This document shows, one piece after another, positions 8,676-16,231 of a DNA stretch of 32,000 bases. The notes beneath the pieces are model-generated. The model saw only the letters and a list, made by a program, of their open reading frames with translations, searched no databases and was not told where the DNA came from. Numbering within the stretch: the stretch's first letter is position 1; every line of letters starts with the position of its first letter. The position numbers and the translations under genes are program-made. Source of the stretch: Erysipelotrichaceae bacterium (lineage in GTDB: Bacteria > Bacillota_I > Bacilli_A > Erysipelotrichales > Erysipelotrichaceae); contig OY781039.1 in the NCBI GenBank assembly GCA_963676105.1, forward strand, positions 1,110,001-1,142,000, given 5' to 3'.

Positions 8676-9788
8676 TTAAACTCTAGATTTAAAATCAGAA
8701 TAACTGAATTCTTTTATAAGTTTTATATCGCCAGCTAGTGTTTTTACCGCAATAGATGGAAGTGGTATTCCATTAAAAGTATTCGTTTTTACGATGGTAT
8801 ATAAAGCCATATCTTCAAAGATGAGCTCTTCACCAATTTCTAGTTTATGATCAAAGCTATAATCACCAATTACATCACCGGCTAAGCAAGAAGGTCCACC
8901 TAAACGATATTTAAATTCACCCTCTTTGTTTGAGTTAGTAATACGTGGTGTATAAGGTACTTCTAAGACATCTGGCATATGACAGGTTGCCGAAGTATCT
9001 AGTATAGCTATCTCAATACCATTGTTAACAATATCAACTACTTTGGCCACAAGTGTTCCTGCATTGAGGACAACTGCTTCTCCTGGTTCTAGATATACAG
9101 TTAAATGTGGATGACGGGCTTTGAAAGCTTTAATCGTTTCAATTAAGAGATCTACATTATAATCATCACGCGTTATATGATGTCCACCACCAAAGTTTAC
9201 CCATTTGAGATTTGGCAGATAATCTTTAAACTCTTCTTCAAAAACAGCTAAAGTTTCGACTAAAGGTTCAGCCCCTTGTTCACACAAGGTATGAAAATGA
9301 AGCCCCTCAACATGCGCCATTAAATCATCACGCATATCTTTTTTCTTAACCCCAAAACGAGAACCATAGGCACATGGATCATACATTCCACCACCTTGAG
9401 TAGAATGTTCAGGATTAATTCGAATCCCAAAACTTTTATTTTTTTGGACTAAACAATCATGAAATTTCTCTAACTGTGTAAATGAATTAAAAATAATATG
9501 ATCACAGATTTCACTAATTTCTTTCATGTCGCTTTTTGTATATGCTGGTGAGAAGACATGATTTTCTTTTTTCATCTCTTCATAGCCGAGTCTTGCTTCA
9601 TACAAACCACTAGCTGTCACACCATCAAGGTATTCACCAATCAGTGGATAAAAGTAATAGGATGAAAAAGCTTTTTGAGCCAGTAGTATTTTACAGCCTG
9701 CTTCCTCTTTGACTCTCTTTAAGATTTTTAAATTTCTTAAAAGATCATTTTCATCAATAAGAAAGTAAGGTGTTTGTAGATTTTTCAT
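8676..9788 (-). CDS. nspC: Carboxynorspermidine/carboxyspermidine decarboxylase (PLP fold type III)
   Basis: 370 aa with motifs NFGGGHHIT and YLEPGEAVV, and length typical of CANSDC. The start overlaps the upstream stop (TAATG at 9786-9790). Confidence 0.8.
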   Translation of the reverse strand: MKNLQTPYFLIDENDLLRNLKILKRVKEEAGCKILLAQKAFSSYYFYPLIGEYLDGVTASGLYEARLGYEEMKKENHVFSPAYTKSDMKEISEICDHIIFNSFTQLEKFHDCLVQKNKSFGIRINPEHSTQGGGMYDPCAYGSRFGVKKKDMRDDLMAHVEGLHFHTLCEQGAEPLVETLAVFEEEFKDYLPNLKWVNFGGGHHITRDDYNVDLLIETIKAFKARHPHLTVYLEPGEAVVLNAGTLVAKVVDIVNNGIEIAILDTSATCHMPDVLEVPYTPRITNSNKEGEFKYRLGGPSCLAGDVIGDYSFDHKLEIGEELIFEDMALYTIVKTNTFNGIPLPSIAVKTLAGDIKLIKEFSYSDFKSRV

Positions 9789-10987
9789 TAATCAACCAAT
9801 ACAGGATTGAAGTCTTCTTGCCAAGGTAGGCCCCATTCATTGAGTGCTTCCATAAATGGATCTGGATCAAATTCTTCAATATTATGCACGCCAGGCATAT
9901 TCCATTTTCCTTGTAGAATCATCATTGCCCCAATCATAGCTGGTACCCCAGTGGTATATGAGATGGCTTGTGAGCCGACTTCTTTATAACAGTCTTGATG
10001 ATCTTTAACGTTATACACATAGTAAGTGACAGGTTTACCATCTTTTGTTCCTTGATAGATACAACCAATATTAGTTTTACCCACAGTGCGAGGACCAAGT
10101 GATGCTGGATCAGGTAATACTGCTTTTAAGAATTGAAGTGGAATAATTTCTTTTCCTTCAAACATAATTGGTTCAATCGATGTCATCCCAACATTTTGTA
10201 GGACGGTTAAATGACGAATATAGCTTTCACCAAATGTCATAAAGAAACGAATACGTTTAATCCCTTTAATATTTTGGGCCAATGATTCAAGTTCTTCATG
10301 ATAAAGAAGATACATATCCTTTTCACCCACTTGATCAAAGTTATATTGACGTTTAATTTCTAATGGTTTAGTTTCATGAAATTCACCATTTTCAAAATAG
10401 CGACCATTTGATGTGATTTCTCGAATGTTTATTTCAGGATTAAAGTTAGTTGCGAAAGGATAACCATGATCACCCCCATTACAATCTAGAATATCGATTT
10501 GTTCAATCTCATCAAAGTAATGTTTCATCGCATATGCACTGAAAACACCTGTAACACCTGGATCAAATCCAGATCCTAAAAGGGCTGTAATACCTGCTTC
10601 TTCAAAACGTTTACGATATGCCCATTGCCAGCTGTATTCAAATTTAGCTGTGTCTTTTGGTTCATAGTTTGCGGTATCCACATAATGCGTTTTGGTCGCA
10701 AGACATGCATCCATAATTGGCAAGTCTTGGTAAGGTAGAGCTAAATTAACAACTACATCAGGTTGATATTCATTGATGAGCTTTACGAGTTCTTCAACAT
10801 TATCGGCATCAACTGCACGAGTTGAAATGTTAACACCTTTCCCATCTAATTCTTTTTTTAGGGCATCACATTTCGATACTGTACGTGATGCGATCATTAA
10901 ATCTGTAAATACATCTTTGTTTTGAACCATTTTATGAATGGCTACGGATGCGACACCGCCACATCCAATGACTAAAGTTTTTGACAT
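9788..10987 (-). CDS. Carboxynorspermidine/carboxyspermidine dehydrogenase (synthase), saccharopine dehydrogenase family
   Basis: 399 aa with N-terminal Rossmann motif LVIGCGGVASV and family-typical length. It is paired with the decarboxylase directly downstream. SD AGGAGG upstream. Confidence 0.8.
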   Translation of the reverse strand: MSKTLVIGCGGVASVAIHKMVQNKDVFTDLMIASRTVSKCDALKKELDGKGVNISTRAVDADNVEELVKLINEYQPDVVVNLALPYQDLPIMDACLATKTHYVDTANYEPKDTAKFEYSWQWAYRKRFEEAGITALLGSGFDPGVTGVFSAYAMKHYFDEIEQIDILDCNGGDHGYPFATNFNPEINIREITSNGRYFENGEFHETKPLEIKRQYNFDQVGEKDMYLLYHEELESLAQNIKGIKRIRFFMTFGESYIRHLTVLQNVGMTSIEPIMFEGKEIIPLQFLKAVLPDPASLGPRTVGKTNIGCIYQGTKDGKPVTYYVYNVKDHQDCYKEVGSQAISYTTGVPAMIGAMMILQGKWNMPGVHNIEEFDPDPFMEALNEWGLPWQEDFNPVLVD

Positions 10988-11000
10988 TAACTGTCCTCCT

Positions 11001-11852
11001 TTATTTAATAATGGTTAATAATAATTCTCTTAAGGTTTTAATCGCAACTGAGGTTGAAGCCCCAGTAGGATCAATATAAGGTGCCAATTCAACTAAGTCT
11101 GCACCAACGATATTTAGATCTCTTAGTGTATAAATCGCATTGATGAGTTCATTAAAGTTAACGCCCCCTGGTTCAGGTGTTCCTGTTCCTGGAAAAGTTG
11201 ATGGATCTAAGACATCCAAATCAATTGTTAAATAGACTGGTTTACCTTCTAACTTTTTAACAACTTTTTCCAAACCATCAAAGTTATGTAAATTAATAAA
11301 CTGAAATTCTTTCGCATACTCAAATTCTTCTTTTAAGCCAGATCGAATCCCAAATTGAAAGAGTTTATGATCACCTGTTAATTCAACCATACGTTTGAGA
11401 ACTGAAGCATGAGACAATTCACTGCCACCATATTCATCTCGTAAATCTGTATGGGCATCAAAGTGAATGATATGAACATCTGGATACTTTTGAATAACTG
11501 CTTTAAAAGCCCCTAACGTCACTAAGTGTTCGCCACCAATCATAACTGGCGTTTTATTATCATCTAATACTTTACGTGTATAATCCTCAATGCTATTTAA
11601 TGCTTTTTCAGCACTACCAAAAGGAAGTTCTAAATCTCCACCATCAAAGATTTCATGATCATATAGATCACGATCTAAGACAGGCGAGTATGATTCATAA
11701 CCTAAATATGAATCTTGACGCATAACTTGCGAGGCAAAACGAGTTCCAGGTCGATATGAAGTTGTCCCATCAAATGGTGCTCCAAAGACGACATGTGTTG
11801 CCTTTTCATAATCTGCTTCACAACCAATAAACGTCGATATATTTTTCTTCAT
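11001..11852 (-). CDS. speB: Agmatinase-type ureohydrolase (agmatine or N1-aminopropylagmatine as substrate)
   Basis: 283 aa with arginase-fold Mn ligand motifs GGEH, HFDAHTDL and DLDVLDP..PGTGTPEPGG. Confidence 0.8.
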   Translation of the reverse strand: MKKNISTFIGCEADYEKATHVVFGAPFDGTTSYRPGTRFASQVMRQDSYLGYESYSPVLDRDLYDHEIFDGGDLELPFGSAEKALNSIEDYTRKVLDDNKTPVMIGGEHLVTLGAFKAVIQKYPDVHIIHFDAHTDLRDEYGGSELSHASVLKRMVELTGDHKLFQFGIRSGLKEEFEYAKEFQFINLHNFDGLEKVVKKLEGKPVYLTIDLDVLDPSTFPGTGTPEPGGVNFNELINAIYTLRDLNIVGADLVELAPYIDPTGASTSVAIKTLRELLLTIIK

Positions 11853-12694
11853 TACTTCAACAACTCCTTAACATAATTAGGTAGAGCAAACGCTCCAATA
11901 TGTAAATCTGTATTGTAGTATTCTGTATCTAAATCTAAAGCATTCCATGCATCAGCTTTTAAATCCTTAATCGCATCTAATCCTTTAGACGCAAAACCAA
12001 AGGTCCAATGTCCTGCGGGAAATGATGGAATATGTGCTTCATAAATCTGTGATACTTCAAAAGTTTTTGAAATACGTTTATGAATTCTCTTTAAAATATT
12101 CGCATCATTTTCATAGAATGGTGATTCATGTTGATTAACCAAAATACCATTGTCTTCAAGAATATTATAACAGTGTCCATAAAACTCTTTGGTAAATAAG
12201 ACTTCACCAGGTCCATATGGGTCAGATGAATCAACGATAATCAAATCATATTTAATTTTAGAATGACGCATAAATTTAAGTGCATCTTGCACATACAAAG
12301 TCACTCTCTCATCATCAAAACCAGCGGCTTCATATGGAAAGAATTCTTTTGCGACTTCAACGAGTTGTTCATCGATTTCTACGACATCAATTTTTTCGAT
12401 TGTTTTAAAATCACTGAGTTCACGGGCAACTCCCCCATTACCAGCTCCAATAACTAGTACTTTTTTAATATCCATATTCACAGCCATTGGAATATGGACC
12501 AACATTTCATGGTAGATAAAGTCATCTTTTTCAGTTAACATCAAATACCCATCTAAGGTTAGAAAACGACCATATTCAACTGAATCAAAGACATCAATTC
12601 GTTGATATTCACTTTGCGAACTATGGAGTTGTTTTTCAATTTTAATGGAAAACTTAACATTATCAGTGTGTAATTCCGAATACCATAAATCCAT
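11852..12694 (-). CDS. speE: Spermidine synthase-family aminopropyltransferase
   Basis: 280 aa with VLVIGAGNGGVARE (a variant of the usual GGGDGG loop), IIVDSSDPYGPG and FTKEFY motifs. Start and stop share nucleotides with both neighbours. Confidence 0.8.
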   Translation of the reverse strand: MDLWYSELHTDNVKFSIKIEKQLHSSQSEYQRIDVFDSVEYGRFLTLDGYLMLTEKDDFIYHEMLVHIPMAVNMDIKKVLVIGAGNGGVARELSDFKTIEKIDVVEIDEQLVEVAKEFFPYEAAGFDDERVTLYVQDALKFMRHSKIKYDLIIVDSSDPYGPGEVLFTKEFYGHCYNILEDNGILVNQHESPFYENDANILKRIHKRISKTFEVSQIYEAHIPSFPAGHWTFGFASKGLDAIKDLKADAWNALDLDTEYYNTDLHIGAFALPNYVKELLK

Positions 12695-14157
12695 TATTTT
12701 TCCTCCATAAGAACTTCAATATAACGTTCTTCTCTCTCTTCTGTACCAATTAAGAAACAACCTTTATCAACCGCATAAACAATGTAGTCAATGATTTCTT
12801 TAGTAATGCGTTCTCCAGGTGCCAAAATAGGAATTCCTGGTGGATACAACATAACAAACTCCCCGCAAATCTTATCTTCCGCTTGACTCATTGGAATAAA
12901 ATCTTGATAAGCATAGAAAGCTTCTTGAGGCGTCATTACGACATCTGGGGAAATATATTCGTTTTCTAATAAATCATTCTTCTTATTTTTATAGATACGT
13001 TTAACATCCGCTAAAGCAGAAACTAAACGTTCAATATTCTTTTGCGTATCCCCTAATGATATGTAAGCTAAAGTATTACCAATATCACCAAATTCAAGTT
13101 GGATATCATATTCATCACGAAGAATATCGTAGACTTCAATTCCCGCTAAGCCTAAATCTAATGTATTAATGGACAATTTCGTCGGATCAAAATCAAAAAT
13201 GGTATCTCCATTTACCAATTCTTTCCCAAAGGCATAATAATCCCCAATCTCATTGATTTCTTCACGTGCATATTCCGCTAACTTAGACACCTTCGCAAAG
13301 ATTTTTTCGCCTTCTAAGGCTAATTTCTTACGAGAAATATCTAAACTCGATAAGAGTAAATAAGAACCTGAAGTGGTTTGGGTTAAGTTTATAATTTGGC
13401 GCACATCATTCGCATCAACATTTTCACCTAAGAGTAAAAATGAACTTTGTGTGAGTGATCCACCACTTTTATGCATTGATACACTACTCATATCAGCGCC
13501 AGCTGCCATCGCCGTTAAAGGCATATTTTGTCCAAAATAGAAGTGAGTTCCATGTGCTTCATCCACTAACATCTTCATTCCATATTCATGCGCTAAATCA
13601 GTAATGGCTTGTAGATTTGAACAAATACCATAGTAAGTAGGATTATTGACCAAGACCGCAACTGCATCTGGATTATCTTTAATCGCTTTTTCAATCGATG
13701 ATAATTTCATCCCTAAAGGAATTCCTAAATCTTTATTCACTTCAGGATTAACATAGATAGGTTTTGCGCCATTTAAAACCAAAGCATTAATAACTGAGCG
13801 GTGAACATTACGAGGAAGTATTATCTTTTCTCCACGCTTACATGAAGCGAGAATCATTGCTTGAACAGAAGAGGTTGTTCCTCCAACCATGAAGAAACAA
13901 TGTGCTGCTCCAAATGCATCAGCCGCTAATTCTTCAGCTTCTGAAATTACAGAGGTTGGATGACAAAGATTATCAACTGGTTTCATTGAGTTAATATCCA
14001 ACTTCATTACTTGTGATCCTAAAAATTCAGTTAACTCTTTATTTCCAACGCCTCGTTTGTGTCCAGGTACATCAAAAGGAACGAGTCGTGATTTCTCAAC
14101 TTGTTGAAGTGCCTCTTTTATCGGTGCTCTTCTTTGATCTAATTTTGCCATAGCCAT
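12694..14157 (-). CDS. speA: Arginine decarboxylase (Orn/Lys/Arg decarboxylase family, PLP fold type I, B. subtilis SpeA type)
   Basis: 487 aa with PLP-lysine motif SMHKSGGSLTQ. Operon context with agmatinase supports arginine as substrate. The SD AGGAG abuts the first ATG (14157), so the second ATG at 14151 (6-nt spacing) is the more likely start. Confidence 0.75.
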   Translation of the reverse strand: MAMAKLDQRRAPIKEALQQVEKSRLVPFDVPGHKRGVGNKELTEFLGSQVMKLDINSMKPVDNLCHPTSVISEAEELAADAFGAAHCFFMVGGTTSSVQAMILASCKRGEKIILPRNVHRSVINALVLNGAKPIYVNPEVNKDLGIPLGMKLSSIEKAIKDNPDAVAVLVNNPTYYGICSNLQAITDLAHEYGMKMLVDEAHGTHFYFGQNMPLTAMAAGADMSSVSMHKSGGSLTQSSFLLLGENVDANDVRQIINLTQTTSGSYLLLSSLDISRKKLALEGEKIFAKVSKLAEYAREEINEIGDYYAFGKELVNGDTIFDFDPTKLSINTLDLGLAGIEVYDILRDEYDIQLEFGDIGNTLAYISLGDTQKNIERLVSALADVKRIYKNKKNDLLENEYISPDVVMTPQEAFYAYQDFIPMSQAEDKICGEFVMLYPPGIPILAPGERITKEIIDYIVYAVDKGCFLIGTEEREERYIEVLMEEK

Positions 14158-14449
14158 CTCCTAAGATATAAATAAAAAACCAAGCATTACACTTGGTTGA
14201 AATAAAATCTGTCACAACATCATACATGTCCGACACGTGTGGTCAAGACTTGTTGCCTTCACCACTCTTATTGATCTTTTCACAAGTGTAATTGTACTTA
14301 TAAAAATTGAGCTTTAAACTCAAACAATAAGGCAACTGAGTTGCCGGTCCGGCTAACGACCTAGCTGTCCGTATGGCTACTTTTGAATTGATACTCATAA
14401 GTATGGTCGAATTAAACTACTCATAAGATAGACATTAAACTATCTTATC
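14158..14449 (-). promoter_or_regulatory. Candidate cis-regulatory leader RNA of the polyamine operon (terminator/antiterminator type, class not recognised)
   Basis: About 290 nt lie between a good promoter and speA. Elements present: a 5' perfect 9-bp hairpin (14423-14448), a 50-nt core of 60% GC (14331-14380) in a ~1/3-GC genome, and a GGCAAC-UCA-GUUGCC hairpin. The 10-nt AUUACACUUG (14292-14283) is exactly complementary to CAAGUGUAAU (14195-14186) inside the terminator. Confidence 0.55.
14174..14198 (-). terminator. Leader (attenuator) terminator directly upstream of the speA ribosome-binding site
   Basis: On the - strand, AACCAAG-TGTAATG-CTTGGTT (14198-14178) is followed by TTTTTTATTT. 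It ends about 10 nt before the SD of speA. Confidence 0.7.
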
Positions 14450-14455
14450 GTGTCA

Positions 14456-14484
14456 ATAATATATGACTTTAATGCCTTTGACAA
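14456..14484 (-). promoter_or_regulatory. Sigma-A-type promoter of the speA leader
   Basis: On the - strand: TTGTCA (14484-14479), 17-nt spacer, TATTAT (14461-14456). Confidence 0.55.
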
Positions 14485-14524
14485 GGACTCTATTTAAAAA
14501 GTTACAAATTTGCTTATTATTCAT

Positions 14525-14545
14525 GAAAAAAGAGGAAAAATCCCC
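14525..14545 (-). terminator. Possible weak terminator of the GH13 gene
   Basis: On the - strand, GGGGA-TTTT-TCCTC (one G-U pair) follows the stop codon directly and is followed by TTTTTT. Confidence 0.35.
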
Positions 14546-16231
14546 TTATTTCTCAATCCATAGGTATTCAAAGGCATCTAATTTTATAAGACCTTTCTGC
14601 CCACAAACAGAACCATCAATCTCTTGCGTTTCTGATGATAAGTTTTGTATAACCACCATCACATCATCTTTATAGCTTCGTATATAAGATAAGATATGAT
14701 TATTAGCCGTTCCATCAATATTTTTACATTGTATAAATTCTAAAGAACCTCTCGAGAAAGATGGATGAAGTGATCTTAATGATGTCATATCTTTAATCGC
14801 ATAATAGACTTGATAAGCTAAAGAAGTATTGTCTTTTAAGTCCTTTTCTATTTGATTCCAATCCATACGTCCTCGACCTAAATAACGAGAATCTTTATAA
14901 CCTGATAATTCAAACATTTCATTGTAATAATCTAAATCATTCTTCTTACCAATTTCATCACCATAATAAATGATTGGTGTACCAATTAAAGTAAACATAA
15001 TTGAGTAAGCTAATTTAATGCGTTTAACATCATGTTCAAATAAATCACTTAGACGTGCTGAGATTCCTTCACCCGTTCTAAAGTCCCATGATGGATCTTT
15101 CGCATAATAATTAAAGATGAATTTTCTTTCTTCAGGCGTCACCATTTCCAAAGTAAGTTCGTCATGACATCTTAAGAAACTAAACCACTGACATGACTCT
15201 GGTATTTCTGGCGTAAATGAAGGAGCCATAACCATTTCAATAGATGACTTATCTTCTTCAGCCAAAGCTTTAAAAATTCGAGGCATCACTGGAAAGTGAT
15301 ATGCCGCATTACATTCAGCTCCGCCCCCAAAGTATTCAACCACTTGTTCAGGTGGCTGACAAGCTTCTGCTAGCAGCAAGTTATCAGGACTTAGATAATC
15401 TAGAGTTGCCTTAAAGAATTGAACGATTAAATGGGTCTTAGGTAAATTCTCACAGATGGTGTTCTCTTCTTTCCAAAGATAAGGAACCGCATCCGCTCTA
15501 AAACCATCAACCCCTTGAATTTTCCAACCAATTAACATATTAGTCATGGCCATTAAAACATCGGGATTACGATAGTTCAAATCTGGTTGAATATCAAAGA
15601 AACGATGGAAAAAATATTGACCAGCCACATCATCCCATTGCCAATTACTATCCATCATACCTTTAAAGATAATACGGGCATCTTTATACCGATCTTGGGT
15701 ATCACTCCAAATAAAGTAATCACGATATCGATTATCTTTTGATGTACGCGCTTCTTTAAACCAATGATGTTCATTAGAACAGTGATTCATTGCCACATCA
15801 AAAATAACTTTTATTCCTTTTTCGTGTGCTTCATCAATAAAAGCTTTAAAGACTATGGCTTTACTTTTCTTATCCGCATCAGTATCTAGCCCTAATAAAT
15901 CAGCACGAACAGATTCATAATCTGAAATATCAAAGCCTGCGTCTTTCATCGGTGATTCAAGGATCGGTAGTAACCATAAACAATTGACACCCATGTTTTG
16001 AAGATAGTCTAGTTTTTCTTTTAAACCATTAAAATCTTTATTAAATAAATCTACATAAGTTGAATAAACAACCGCATCCTTATACCAATCATTTGTCCCA
16101 TTATTATCGTTCGAGAAATAATCACGTTTAATCTGTTCAACTTCTTCCACAAAAGCCTCAAGTTTGTCATGAGCTCCATTGTCTAAAAAATCGCCGTAGA
16201 TTTCGTTCCACAGTCTTTTTATATTTTTCAT
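14546..16231 (-). CDS. treS: GH13 alpha-amylase-family enzyme, trehalose synthase (maltose alpha-D-glucosyltransferase)-like
   Basis: 561 aa with GH13 conserved regions DVAMNH, GVDGFRADAVPYLW, LLLAEACQPPEQVVEYFG, FLRCHDELTLEMV and FHRFFDIQPDLNYRNPDV. These closely resemble TreS signatures. Confidence 0.65.
   Translation of the reverse strand: MKNIKRLWNEIYGDFLDNGAHDKLEAFVEEVEQIKRDYFSNDNNGTNDWYKDAVVYSTYVDLFNKDFNGLKEKLDYLQNMGVNCLWLLPILESPMKDAGFDISDYESVRADLLGLDTDADKKSKAIVFKAFIDEAHEKGIKVIFDVAMNHCSNEHHWFKEARTSKDNRYRDYFIWSDTQDRYKDARIIFKGMMDSNWQWDDVAGQYFFHRFFDIQPDLNYRNPDVLMAMTNMLIGWKIQGVDGFRADAVPYLWKEENTICENLPKTHLIVQFFKATLDYLSPDNLLLAEACQPPEQVVEYFGGGAECNAAYHFPVMPRIFKALAEEDKSSIEMVMAPSFTPEIPESCQWFSFLRCHDELTLEMVTPEERKFIFNYYAKDPSWDFRTGEGISARLSDLFEHDVKRIKLAYSIMFTLIGTPIIYYGDEIGKKNDLDYYNEMFELSGYKDSRYLGRGRMDWNQIEKDLKDNTSLAYQVYYAIKDMTSLRSLHPSFSRGSLEFIQCKNIDGTANNHILSYIRSYKDDVMVVIQNLSSETQEIDGSVCGQKGLIKLDAFEYLWIEK

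Follow-up and report, generated by a model that had tools for sequence, protein, structure and literature searches.

The window analysed here, a 32,000-nt stretch of an Erysipelotrichaceae bacterium genome, carries a polyamine operon on its minus strand (8676–14157). The operon comprises genes for a speA-like Orn/Lys/Arg decarboxylase, speE, speB (agmatinase), a carboxynorspermidine synthase-like protein (CASDH), and nspC, as assigned by Pfam and NCBIfam. The Shine–Dalgarno sequence and the speA start occupy 14162–14147 (−). ATG 14157 abuts the Shine–Dalgarno sequence AGGAG (14162–14158), and ATG 14151 lies at a spacing of 6 nt. Judged from this spacing and from the N-termini of homologues (P0002 is 485 aa long), the speA start is probably ATG 14151, giving a SpeA of 485 aa. 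The gene upstream of the operon encodes an alpha-amylase family protein and has its own terminator at 14547–14530. We explain the 290-nt gap upstream of speA as a regulatory leader. In the public gene calls, five SpeA homologues (P0001, P0004, P0005, P0006, and P0008, from loci L153–L156 and L158) are 590–687 aa long. Their starts are over-extended by 100–200 codons, so that the called genes span the region of the terminator and leader; this annotation artefact results from the length of the untranslated leader.

A sigma-70-type promoter is located at 14484–14456 (−). It consists of the −35 element TTGTCA (14484–14479), a 17-nt spacer, and the −10 element TATTAT (14461–14456), and matches the consensus at 10 of 12 positions. 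The transcription start site (TSS) predicted from this promoter is ~14449 (−). In three relatives with a leader of the window type (L001, L150, and L157), the promoter is kept as TTGTMA-N17-TATKAT (TTGTAA or TTGTCA, N17, TATGAT or TATTAT) despite differing flanks, consistent with the promoter and the TSS proposed in the initial annotation. All the sequence features listed in that annotation are present on the minus strand where it placed them. An internal promoter-like site, TTGACC-16-TATGAT at 14246–14219 (−), is not conserved in L001, L150, and L157 and is probably a chance occurrence.

As a whole, the leader is more stably folded than shuffled sequence (z = −4.2). Its segment 14331–14380, singled out earlier as GC-rich, is 60% GC compared with 33.5% GC for the window. 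All leader coordinates below refer to the minus strand. Directly after the predicted TSS, GAUAAGAUAG...CUAUCUUAUG forms a 5' hairpin, P0 (14449–14422, −9.1 kcal/mol). Each window-type relative has a hairpin at the P0 position, with unrelated sequence. The core domain (14409–14357) comprises P1 (CGACC 14409–14405 with GGUCG 14361–14357), the extended hairpin P1a (14403–14378), and a conserved internal loop, GCCAUACGGACAGCUA (14377–14362). It corresponds to positions 1–45 of the covariance model R1 described below. The 3' tail UUAGCCGGACC (14356–14346) contains CCG (14352–14350), the pseudoknot partner of the loop CGG (14371–14369). Downstream of the tail are the P2 hairpin GGCAAC-UCA-GUUGCC (14345–14331), the P3 5' strand UUAUUG (14330–14325), the P4 hairpin UUGAG-UUUAAAG-CUCAA (14323–14307), P5 (14303–14280), in which UUAUAAGU (14303–14296) pairs with ACUUGUGA (14287–14280), and the P3 3' strand CAAUAA (14273–14268). 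The P6 region (14269–14239), where the alignment to R1 is weak, begins with the conserved AAGAGU (14269–14264) and then forms a lineage-specific hairpin, GUGGU-G-AAGGC...GUCUU-G-ACCAC (14265–14239), which by eye covaries among the window, L001, L150, and L157. AAGAGU may also form a weak P6a-like pairing with 14209–14204.

The P6 region is followed by a second lineage-specific element (14238–14210), composed of the block ACGUGUCGGACA and the hairpin UGUCGGACAU...AUGUUGUGACA. All four window-type leaders conserve the block, but this carries little weight because the four are close relatives, and no conserved distant partner for it is found among them. The sequence at 14235–14210 folds into a hairpin in the window, L150, and L157 and folds differently in L001.

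Three smaller features noted in the initial annotation are present in the sequence, but functional roles for them are not supported. GUUGCC had been proposed to pair either with the adjacent GGCAAC or with a second GGCAAC (14257–14252) in mutually exclusive folds. The local hairpin (P2) covaries and UUAUUG does pair with CAAUAA (P3), but we reject the exclusive fold: the second GGCAAC is not conserved in L001, L150, and L157, and P2 and P3 coexist family-wide. The three copies of CGGAC are located in the conserved internal loop, in the pseudoknot tail, and in the 5' strand of a lineage-specific hairpin, respectively. The best distant partner of the third copy differs in each relative, and a repeated recognition element is rejected. 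The direct repeat CUUAUGAGUA (14427–14418 and 14401–14392) has no apparent functional role as a repeat. Its second copy is the 5' strand of P1a and is conserved in two relatives (with one change in L157). Its first copy, in P0, is found only in the window and looks like a local duplication of ~26 nt.

A gathering-level Rfam scan of the whole window gives no family that reaches its own gathering score; RF02440 ('SpF59 sRNA (ldcC RNA)') is found by a permissive scan only. In that scan (14100–14600), RF02440 matches 14409–14349 with 32.9 bits (E = 3.3e-4), and the whole model (length 54 nt, positions 1–54) is aligned. The leader thus matches a known family at a score below the gathering score of 37.2 bits, and by score alone the window copy falls outside RF02440, as does its closest relative, L001. 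R1, built with the window left out, scores 83.1 bits (E ~6e-21) at 14409–14235 over the full model. When the extension (P2–P6) is searched by itself as a sequence profile, it matches 14345–14253 with E = 6.3e-14, whereas a profile of the core alone matches with only E = 3.1e-4. By R1 and by the extension-only profile, the window leader has full-length homology to loci that pass RF02440. In addition, it shares the features of the motif: a bulged P1 hairpin (CGACC/GGUCG) enclosing the internal loop CCAUACGGACAGC...GGUC (here at 14377–14362), a 3' GCCG tail whose CCG can pair with CGG as a pseudoknot, and a position in the 5' UTR of polyamine genes in Firmicutes, here upstream of a speA-like decarboxylase operon. 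We identify the GC-rich core (14409–14346) as a divergent copy of the ldcC RNA motif.

No SAM-family match is found in the leader region (14100–14600) at E ≤ 10, nor the SAM-I four-way-junction fold, and SAM-I does not reach its gathering score anywhere in the window. No T-box match is found in the gathering-level scan of the window or in the permissive scan of 14100–14600. GAGUGGU in the window is GAGUAGU in most relatives, so its UGG is not conserved.

The family was sampled through 29 loci encoding SpeA relatives from species-representative genomes. The best SpeA match is from an Erysipelotrichaceae MAG (90% amino-acid identity), and the others are from Clostridia (59–71%). RF02440 scores above threshold in nine of the 29 loci, upstream of speA or speD. 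The RNA lies ~300 nt upstream of speA, or ~1 kb upstream with an intervening gene, which is speD wherever the sequence was read. Long conserved blocks 3' of the 54-nt model are common to these loci and the window. A metagenome scan with the core pattern yields 120 loci, ~20 of which are chance matches inside coding sequence. The same downstream blocks, in the same order, are present in every true core with enough downstream sequence. Among all fetched loci, the 110 hits uncut by a contig end all span R1 positions 1–196, and no core-only copy is seen among them. The family extends over several Clostridial families and Erysipelotrichaceae. The further window-type leaders recovered are L001, L150/L151, and L157. 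Look-ups with P0001, P0004, P0005, P0006, and P0008 led to Clostridial loci of high GC content and not to near relatives of the window.

To define the family structure, we aligned 44 non-redundant Clostridial sequences, excluding the window type, with the structure-blind program MAFFT (alignment A2) and built R1 (196 positions, 53 pairs) from this alignment. In A2, 93.3% of cells are paired, compared with 35–43% when the partners are slid, and 23 pairs are compensatory, compared with 11.1 ± 1.8 in shuffles. The conservation and covariation in relatives on which the initial annotation had staked its proposal are thus present. In a larger alignment of 77 distinct sequences (A3), the paired fraction is 94.7% of cells, and compensatory changes occur in 34 pairs, compared with 14.8 ± 1.9; having been fitted to the model, A3 leans towards the structure.

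The elements supported by A2 are P1 and P1a (the catalogued motif), the pseudoknot, P2, P3, P4, P5 enclosing P5a and P5b, P6a, and P6b. P1, P1a, P2, P4, P5a, and P5b covary, with compensatory changes across the family at 5/5 pairs of P2 and 4/4 pairs of P4. P3, P5, and P6 are almost invariant, and their pairing therefore rests mainly on conservation and on G–U/A–U exchanges rather than on double changes. P3 is a long-range helix between CUUAUUGAU and GUCAAUAAG and is 97–98% paired in the 77 sequences; for P5, 99% of cells are paired family-wide. In the 110 full-length relatives, the 54 nt that are catalogued make up no more than the 5' quarter of the conserved RNA, which measures ~200 nt and comprises ten helices and a 3-bp pseudoknot, a structure supported by covariation.

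The pseudoknot pairs the loop CGG with the tail CCG and is invariant in 74 of the 77 distinct sequences. RNAalifold instead places a local CGG:CCG hairpin inside the core. We reject this hairpin in favor of the pseudoknot, since L002 and L003 carry a C–G to A–U double change that covaries with the tail, and since the local hairpin is disrupted in the window type, L046, and L080, all of which retain the tail CCG. In the window, the competing hairpin cannot form because CUA replaces CCG.

Several further observations concern individual family members. Clostridial members (L030–L149, for example L044, L007, and L013) have a strong TTGACA-N17-TATAAT-like promoter 60–80 nt upstream of P1, followed by a 5' hairpin P0 that covaries by eye and by a conserved linker, (G)CAAAU. 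Their 5' CAGAGUC is complementary to the P6a 3' strand GACUCUG, making an alternative long-range pairing possible. In the window, AGAGUCCUUGUCAAAGGCAUU (14491–14471) resembles the Clostridial 5' block AGAGUCUUUUCAAAGCAAUU (P0 3' strand and linker) and overlaps the −35 box. The upstream TSS that this resemblance suggested is rejected, as the block is absent in L157 and the promoter hexamers are conserved; AGAGUCCUUGUCAAAGGCAUU is either a chance match or a relic that has come to serve as a promoter. L081 and L153 carry a 14-nt tandem duplication, GUGAAACGGUCAAU GUGAAACGGUCAAU, in the J5/3–P3 region, the most conserved single-stranded stretch. This natural insertion variant could inform mutagenesis. 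In an Eubacteriales MAG, an unrelated THF riboswitch (RF01831, 87 bits; L011:217–330 (−)) lies ~1.3 kb upstream of the ldcC RNA.

Compared with the family consensus, the P1a of the window copy is longer, its loop reads UAG in place of AAGG, and CUAGG stands in place of CCGGG. An 8-nt loop occupies the position at which most relatives form the sub-helices P5a and P5b. P6b, the AUAUAG loop, and GACUCU are replaced in the window by the hairpin at 14265–14239. Any ligand contacts made by P5a/P5b or by AUAUAG and GACUCU of P6 would therefore be lost in the window.

A predicted intrinsic terminator, a GC-containing stem-loop followed by a U tract, lies just before speA at 14198–14174. It is formed by AACCAAGUG-UAA-UGCUUGGUU (AACCAAG-UGUAAUG-CUUGGUU and U6; nine pairs including G–U). 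The terminator is conserved: it is kept in L001, L150, and L157 and is found at the equivalent downstream position in 51 of 54 family representatives.

The initial annotation had also recognized an antiterminator in the exact complementarity of AUUACACUUG (14292–14283) to CAAGUGUAAU (14195–14186). This pairing extends further. Its 5' strand, AUUACACUUGUGAAAAGAUC (14292–14273), runs from the P5 loop through the P5 3' strand and the joining region to the first base of the P3 3' strand. Its 3' strand, GAUUUUAUUUCAACCAAGUGUAAU (14209–14186), includes the terminator 5' arm and loop. The predicted energy of the duplex between 14292–14273 and 14209–14186 is −16.7 kcal/mol, compared with −8.4 kcal/mol for shuffles (z = −3.6, RNAduplex). 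The P5 loop and the terminator loop change in a matched manner, AUUAC/GUAAU in the window and AUAC/GUAU in L157, and covariation is seen in L150 and L157. The two conformers of the window leader are nearly isoenergetic, at −76.5 kcal/mol for aptamer and terminator and −79.8 kcal/mol for the antiterminator.

The same arrangement is found family-wide. For each terminator-bearing representative, we computed the best duplex between an aptamer segment, which begins with the P5b 3' arm, includes ACUUGUGAAA, and ends at the beginning of the P3 3' strand, and a terminator segment, consisting of the terminator 5' arm and its upstream flank. The duplex covers the terminator 5' arm in 51/51 representatives (median z = −2.6 relative to shuffles), and in all 51 the arm is complementary to the conserved P5 3' strand, ACUUGUG. 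Many terminator arms start with CGCAAGU or GCGCAGGU, the complement of ACUUGUG, and continue with the complement of the variable P5b arm. Cognate aptamer–terminator pairs are more stable than non-cognate pairs (−20.1 versus −16.3 kcal/mol, p = 9e-8). The leader thus combines a conserved structured aptamer supported by covariation with a computed expression platform whose alternative pairing overlaps the aptamer, both characteristic of riboswitches. The central proposal of the initial annotation, a structured cis-regulatory leader with terminator/antiterminator logic before the polyamine operon and a good riboswitch candidate, is upheld.

The antiterminator uses strands of P5 and P3. Folding of the aptamer therefore implies formation of the terminator, which points to an OFF switch. 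In the proposed mechanism, a signal would stabilize the folded aptamer, P5 and P3 would hold the ACUUGUG strand, the terminator would form, and transcription would stop. Without the signal, the ACUUGUG strand would pair with 14209–14186, the terminator would be precluded, and the operon would be read through. Direct binding of a polyamine end product to the RNA is the most likely signal, and spermidine is the best guess. Overall, we favor, with some reserve, the reading that the leader (~14449–14174 (−)) is a divergent ldcC RNA that switches speA–speE–speB–CASDH–nspC OFF in cis by terminating transcription and most likely senses a polyamine.

The genes under control are informative about the signal. 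The first downstream gene in the 51 representatives is speA-like in 28, E. coli-type speD in 16, potA in five, and carboxynorspermidine-synthase (CASDH)-like in two. Spermidine is the best guess because it is the only end product that these genes share, and polyamine feedback is the most economical reading of the gene contexts. Polyamines bind RNA non-specifically, so that a specific pocket is not guaranteed. A bolder and more tentative proposal, which we hold to be possible though short of an even chance, is that ldcC RNA constitutes a second class of polyamine (spermidine) riboswitch with an unrelated structure, whose true aptamer would be the ~200-nt pseudoknotted P1–P6 fold and of which the window copy would be a minimized variant. 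In that case, the larger part of the aptamer would be missing from constructs designed on the 54-nt model, and the window variant, which has no P5a/P5b and a substituted P6, would mark out the essential core.

The same RNA and platform could instead be governed by a protein or another macromolecule that acts in trans, reports polyamine status, and stabilizes the fold, with no small molecule bound by the RNA. The long, highly conserved single-stranded stretches (CCAUACGGACAGC, GUGAAACGG, and AUAUAG) would suit recognition by a protein as well, and the 2017 description of the motif has not been followed by any report of a ligand. However, a ten-helix, pseudoknotted architecture is typical of metabolite aptamers, the family is spread over several Clostridial families and Erysipelotrichaceae, and no conserved neighboring regulator gene is seen, the upstream genes varying by locus (amylase, peptidase M29, and MatE). 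We regard a macromolecular signal as unlikely, though it is the main rival and keeps appreciable weight beside direct sensing.

Rfam classifies RF02440 as 'Gene; sRNA' under the name SpF59 sRNA, and a terminated leader of ~275 nt is predicted, which would fit a trans-acting sRNA as the main product, directed at other mRNAs, with control of speA incidental. It is very improbable that this accounts for the element, which in 51/51 terminator-bearing representatives immediately precedes a polyamine gene in the sense orientation and whose aptamer co-evolves with the terminator arm, indicating a cis-acting design.

The initial annotation had offered the leader as a riboswitch or attenuator of an unrecognized class. 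The absence of any Rfam family at gathering score in the window could be taken in this sense, as could the ~140 nt of conserved RNA with no Rfam match: the extension of a typical member gives none even at E ≤ 1. The idea is nonetheless so improbable that we count it as refuted, as the core matches RF02440, albeit below threshold, and the full length of the leader is homologous to loci whose 5' part passes the RF02440 threshold. On comparative grounds, the leader is a real conserved regulatory RNA and a divergent member of the known orphan ldcC family, not a new class. What is new here is the conserved ~200-nt architecture and the family-wide antiterminator; the motif itself was already known. 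Attenuation by a leader peptide from the ATG-initiated 51-codon ORF at 14398–14243 has a negligible probability, as the ORF has no Shine–Dalgarno sequence, its ATG is inside helix P1a, the same frame in L001 stops after six codons (by eye), and conservation in the family follows base-pairing rather than codons, with no conserved ORF.

Few regulators are known for polyamine homeostasis in Firmicutes, and the ldcC motif, widespread in gut Clostridia, has been an orphan riboswitch candidate since 2017. The ~200-nt unit, the defined pseudoknot, and the antiterminator function of the P5 3' strand provide exact construct boundaries and compensatory mutants for ligand screening. Architecture and antiterminator together make the question of what ldcC RNAs sense directly testable. 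In addition, an R1-type model is better suited to searches than the existing Rfam entry, by which divergent members such as the window copy are overlooked.

The proposed switch resembles known systems in its logic and differs from them in its parts. In OFF riboswitches that terminate transcription, such as the SAM-I and lysine riboswitches, an aptamer helix and the antiterminator share a strand, and ligand-stabilized folding lets the terminator form. The shared strand is the closing helix in SAM-I and lysine riboswitches, whereas in the ldcC leader it belongs to an internal helix (the P5 3' strand) and is, in most members, ~90–190 nt upstream of the terminator, from which P6 and variable hairpins separate it. 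In gamma-proteobacteria, the ornithine-sensing leader peptide speFL acts through a translated arrest peptide and Rho. The speFL leader exerts, and the ldcC leader would exert, cis feedback on a polyamine decarboxylase operon, but the latter has no conserved ORF.

As described in the main text of the 2017 report, the ldcC motif is a bulged hairpin that may form an invariant pseudoknot, and it is found widely among Firmicutes, upstream of Arg/Orn/SAM decarboxylase and potA genes (Weinberg 2017, PMC5737381). That text proposes a role in polyamine homeostasis, with no ligand reported (PMC5737381). We found no later characterization of ldcC or SpF59 in the literature. The catalogued motif is 54 nt long, whereas the RNA described here extends to ~200 nt (P2–P6) and includes a terminator/antiterminator platform; P2–P6 and the platform are absent from the Rfam model and from the main text of PMC5737381. 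A spermidine riboswitch, a SAM-I variant whose ligand was shown experimentally, was published in 2023 (Salvail et al. 2023, PMC10853860). With the proposed role of ldcC and this riboswitch on record, the suggestion that polyamine sensing by such an RNA would be new for the pathway does not stand. The fold of the spermidine riboswitch is unrelated to that of the ldcC leader, and its ligand is shown, whereas that of the ldcC leader is predicted (PMC10853860). The two would be alike in being OFF switches that act in cis upstream of ldcC/speE/speB-type polyamine genes in Firmicutes, and in both the antiterminator would occlude the left arm of an intrinsic terminator (PMC10853860).
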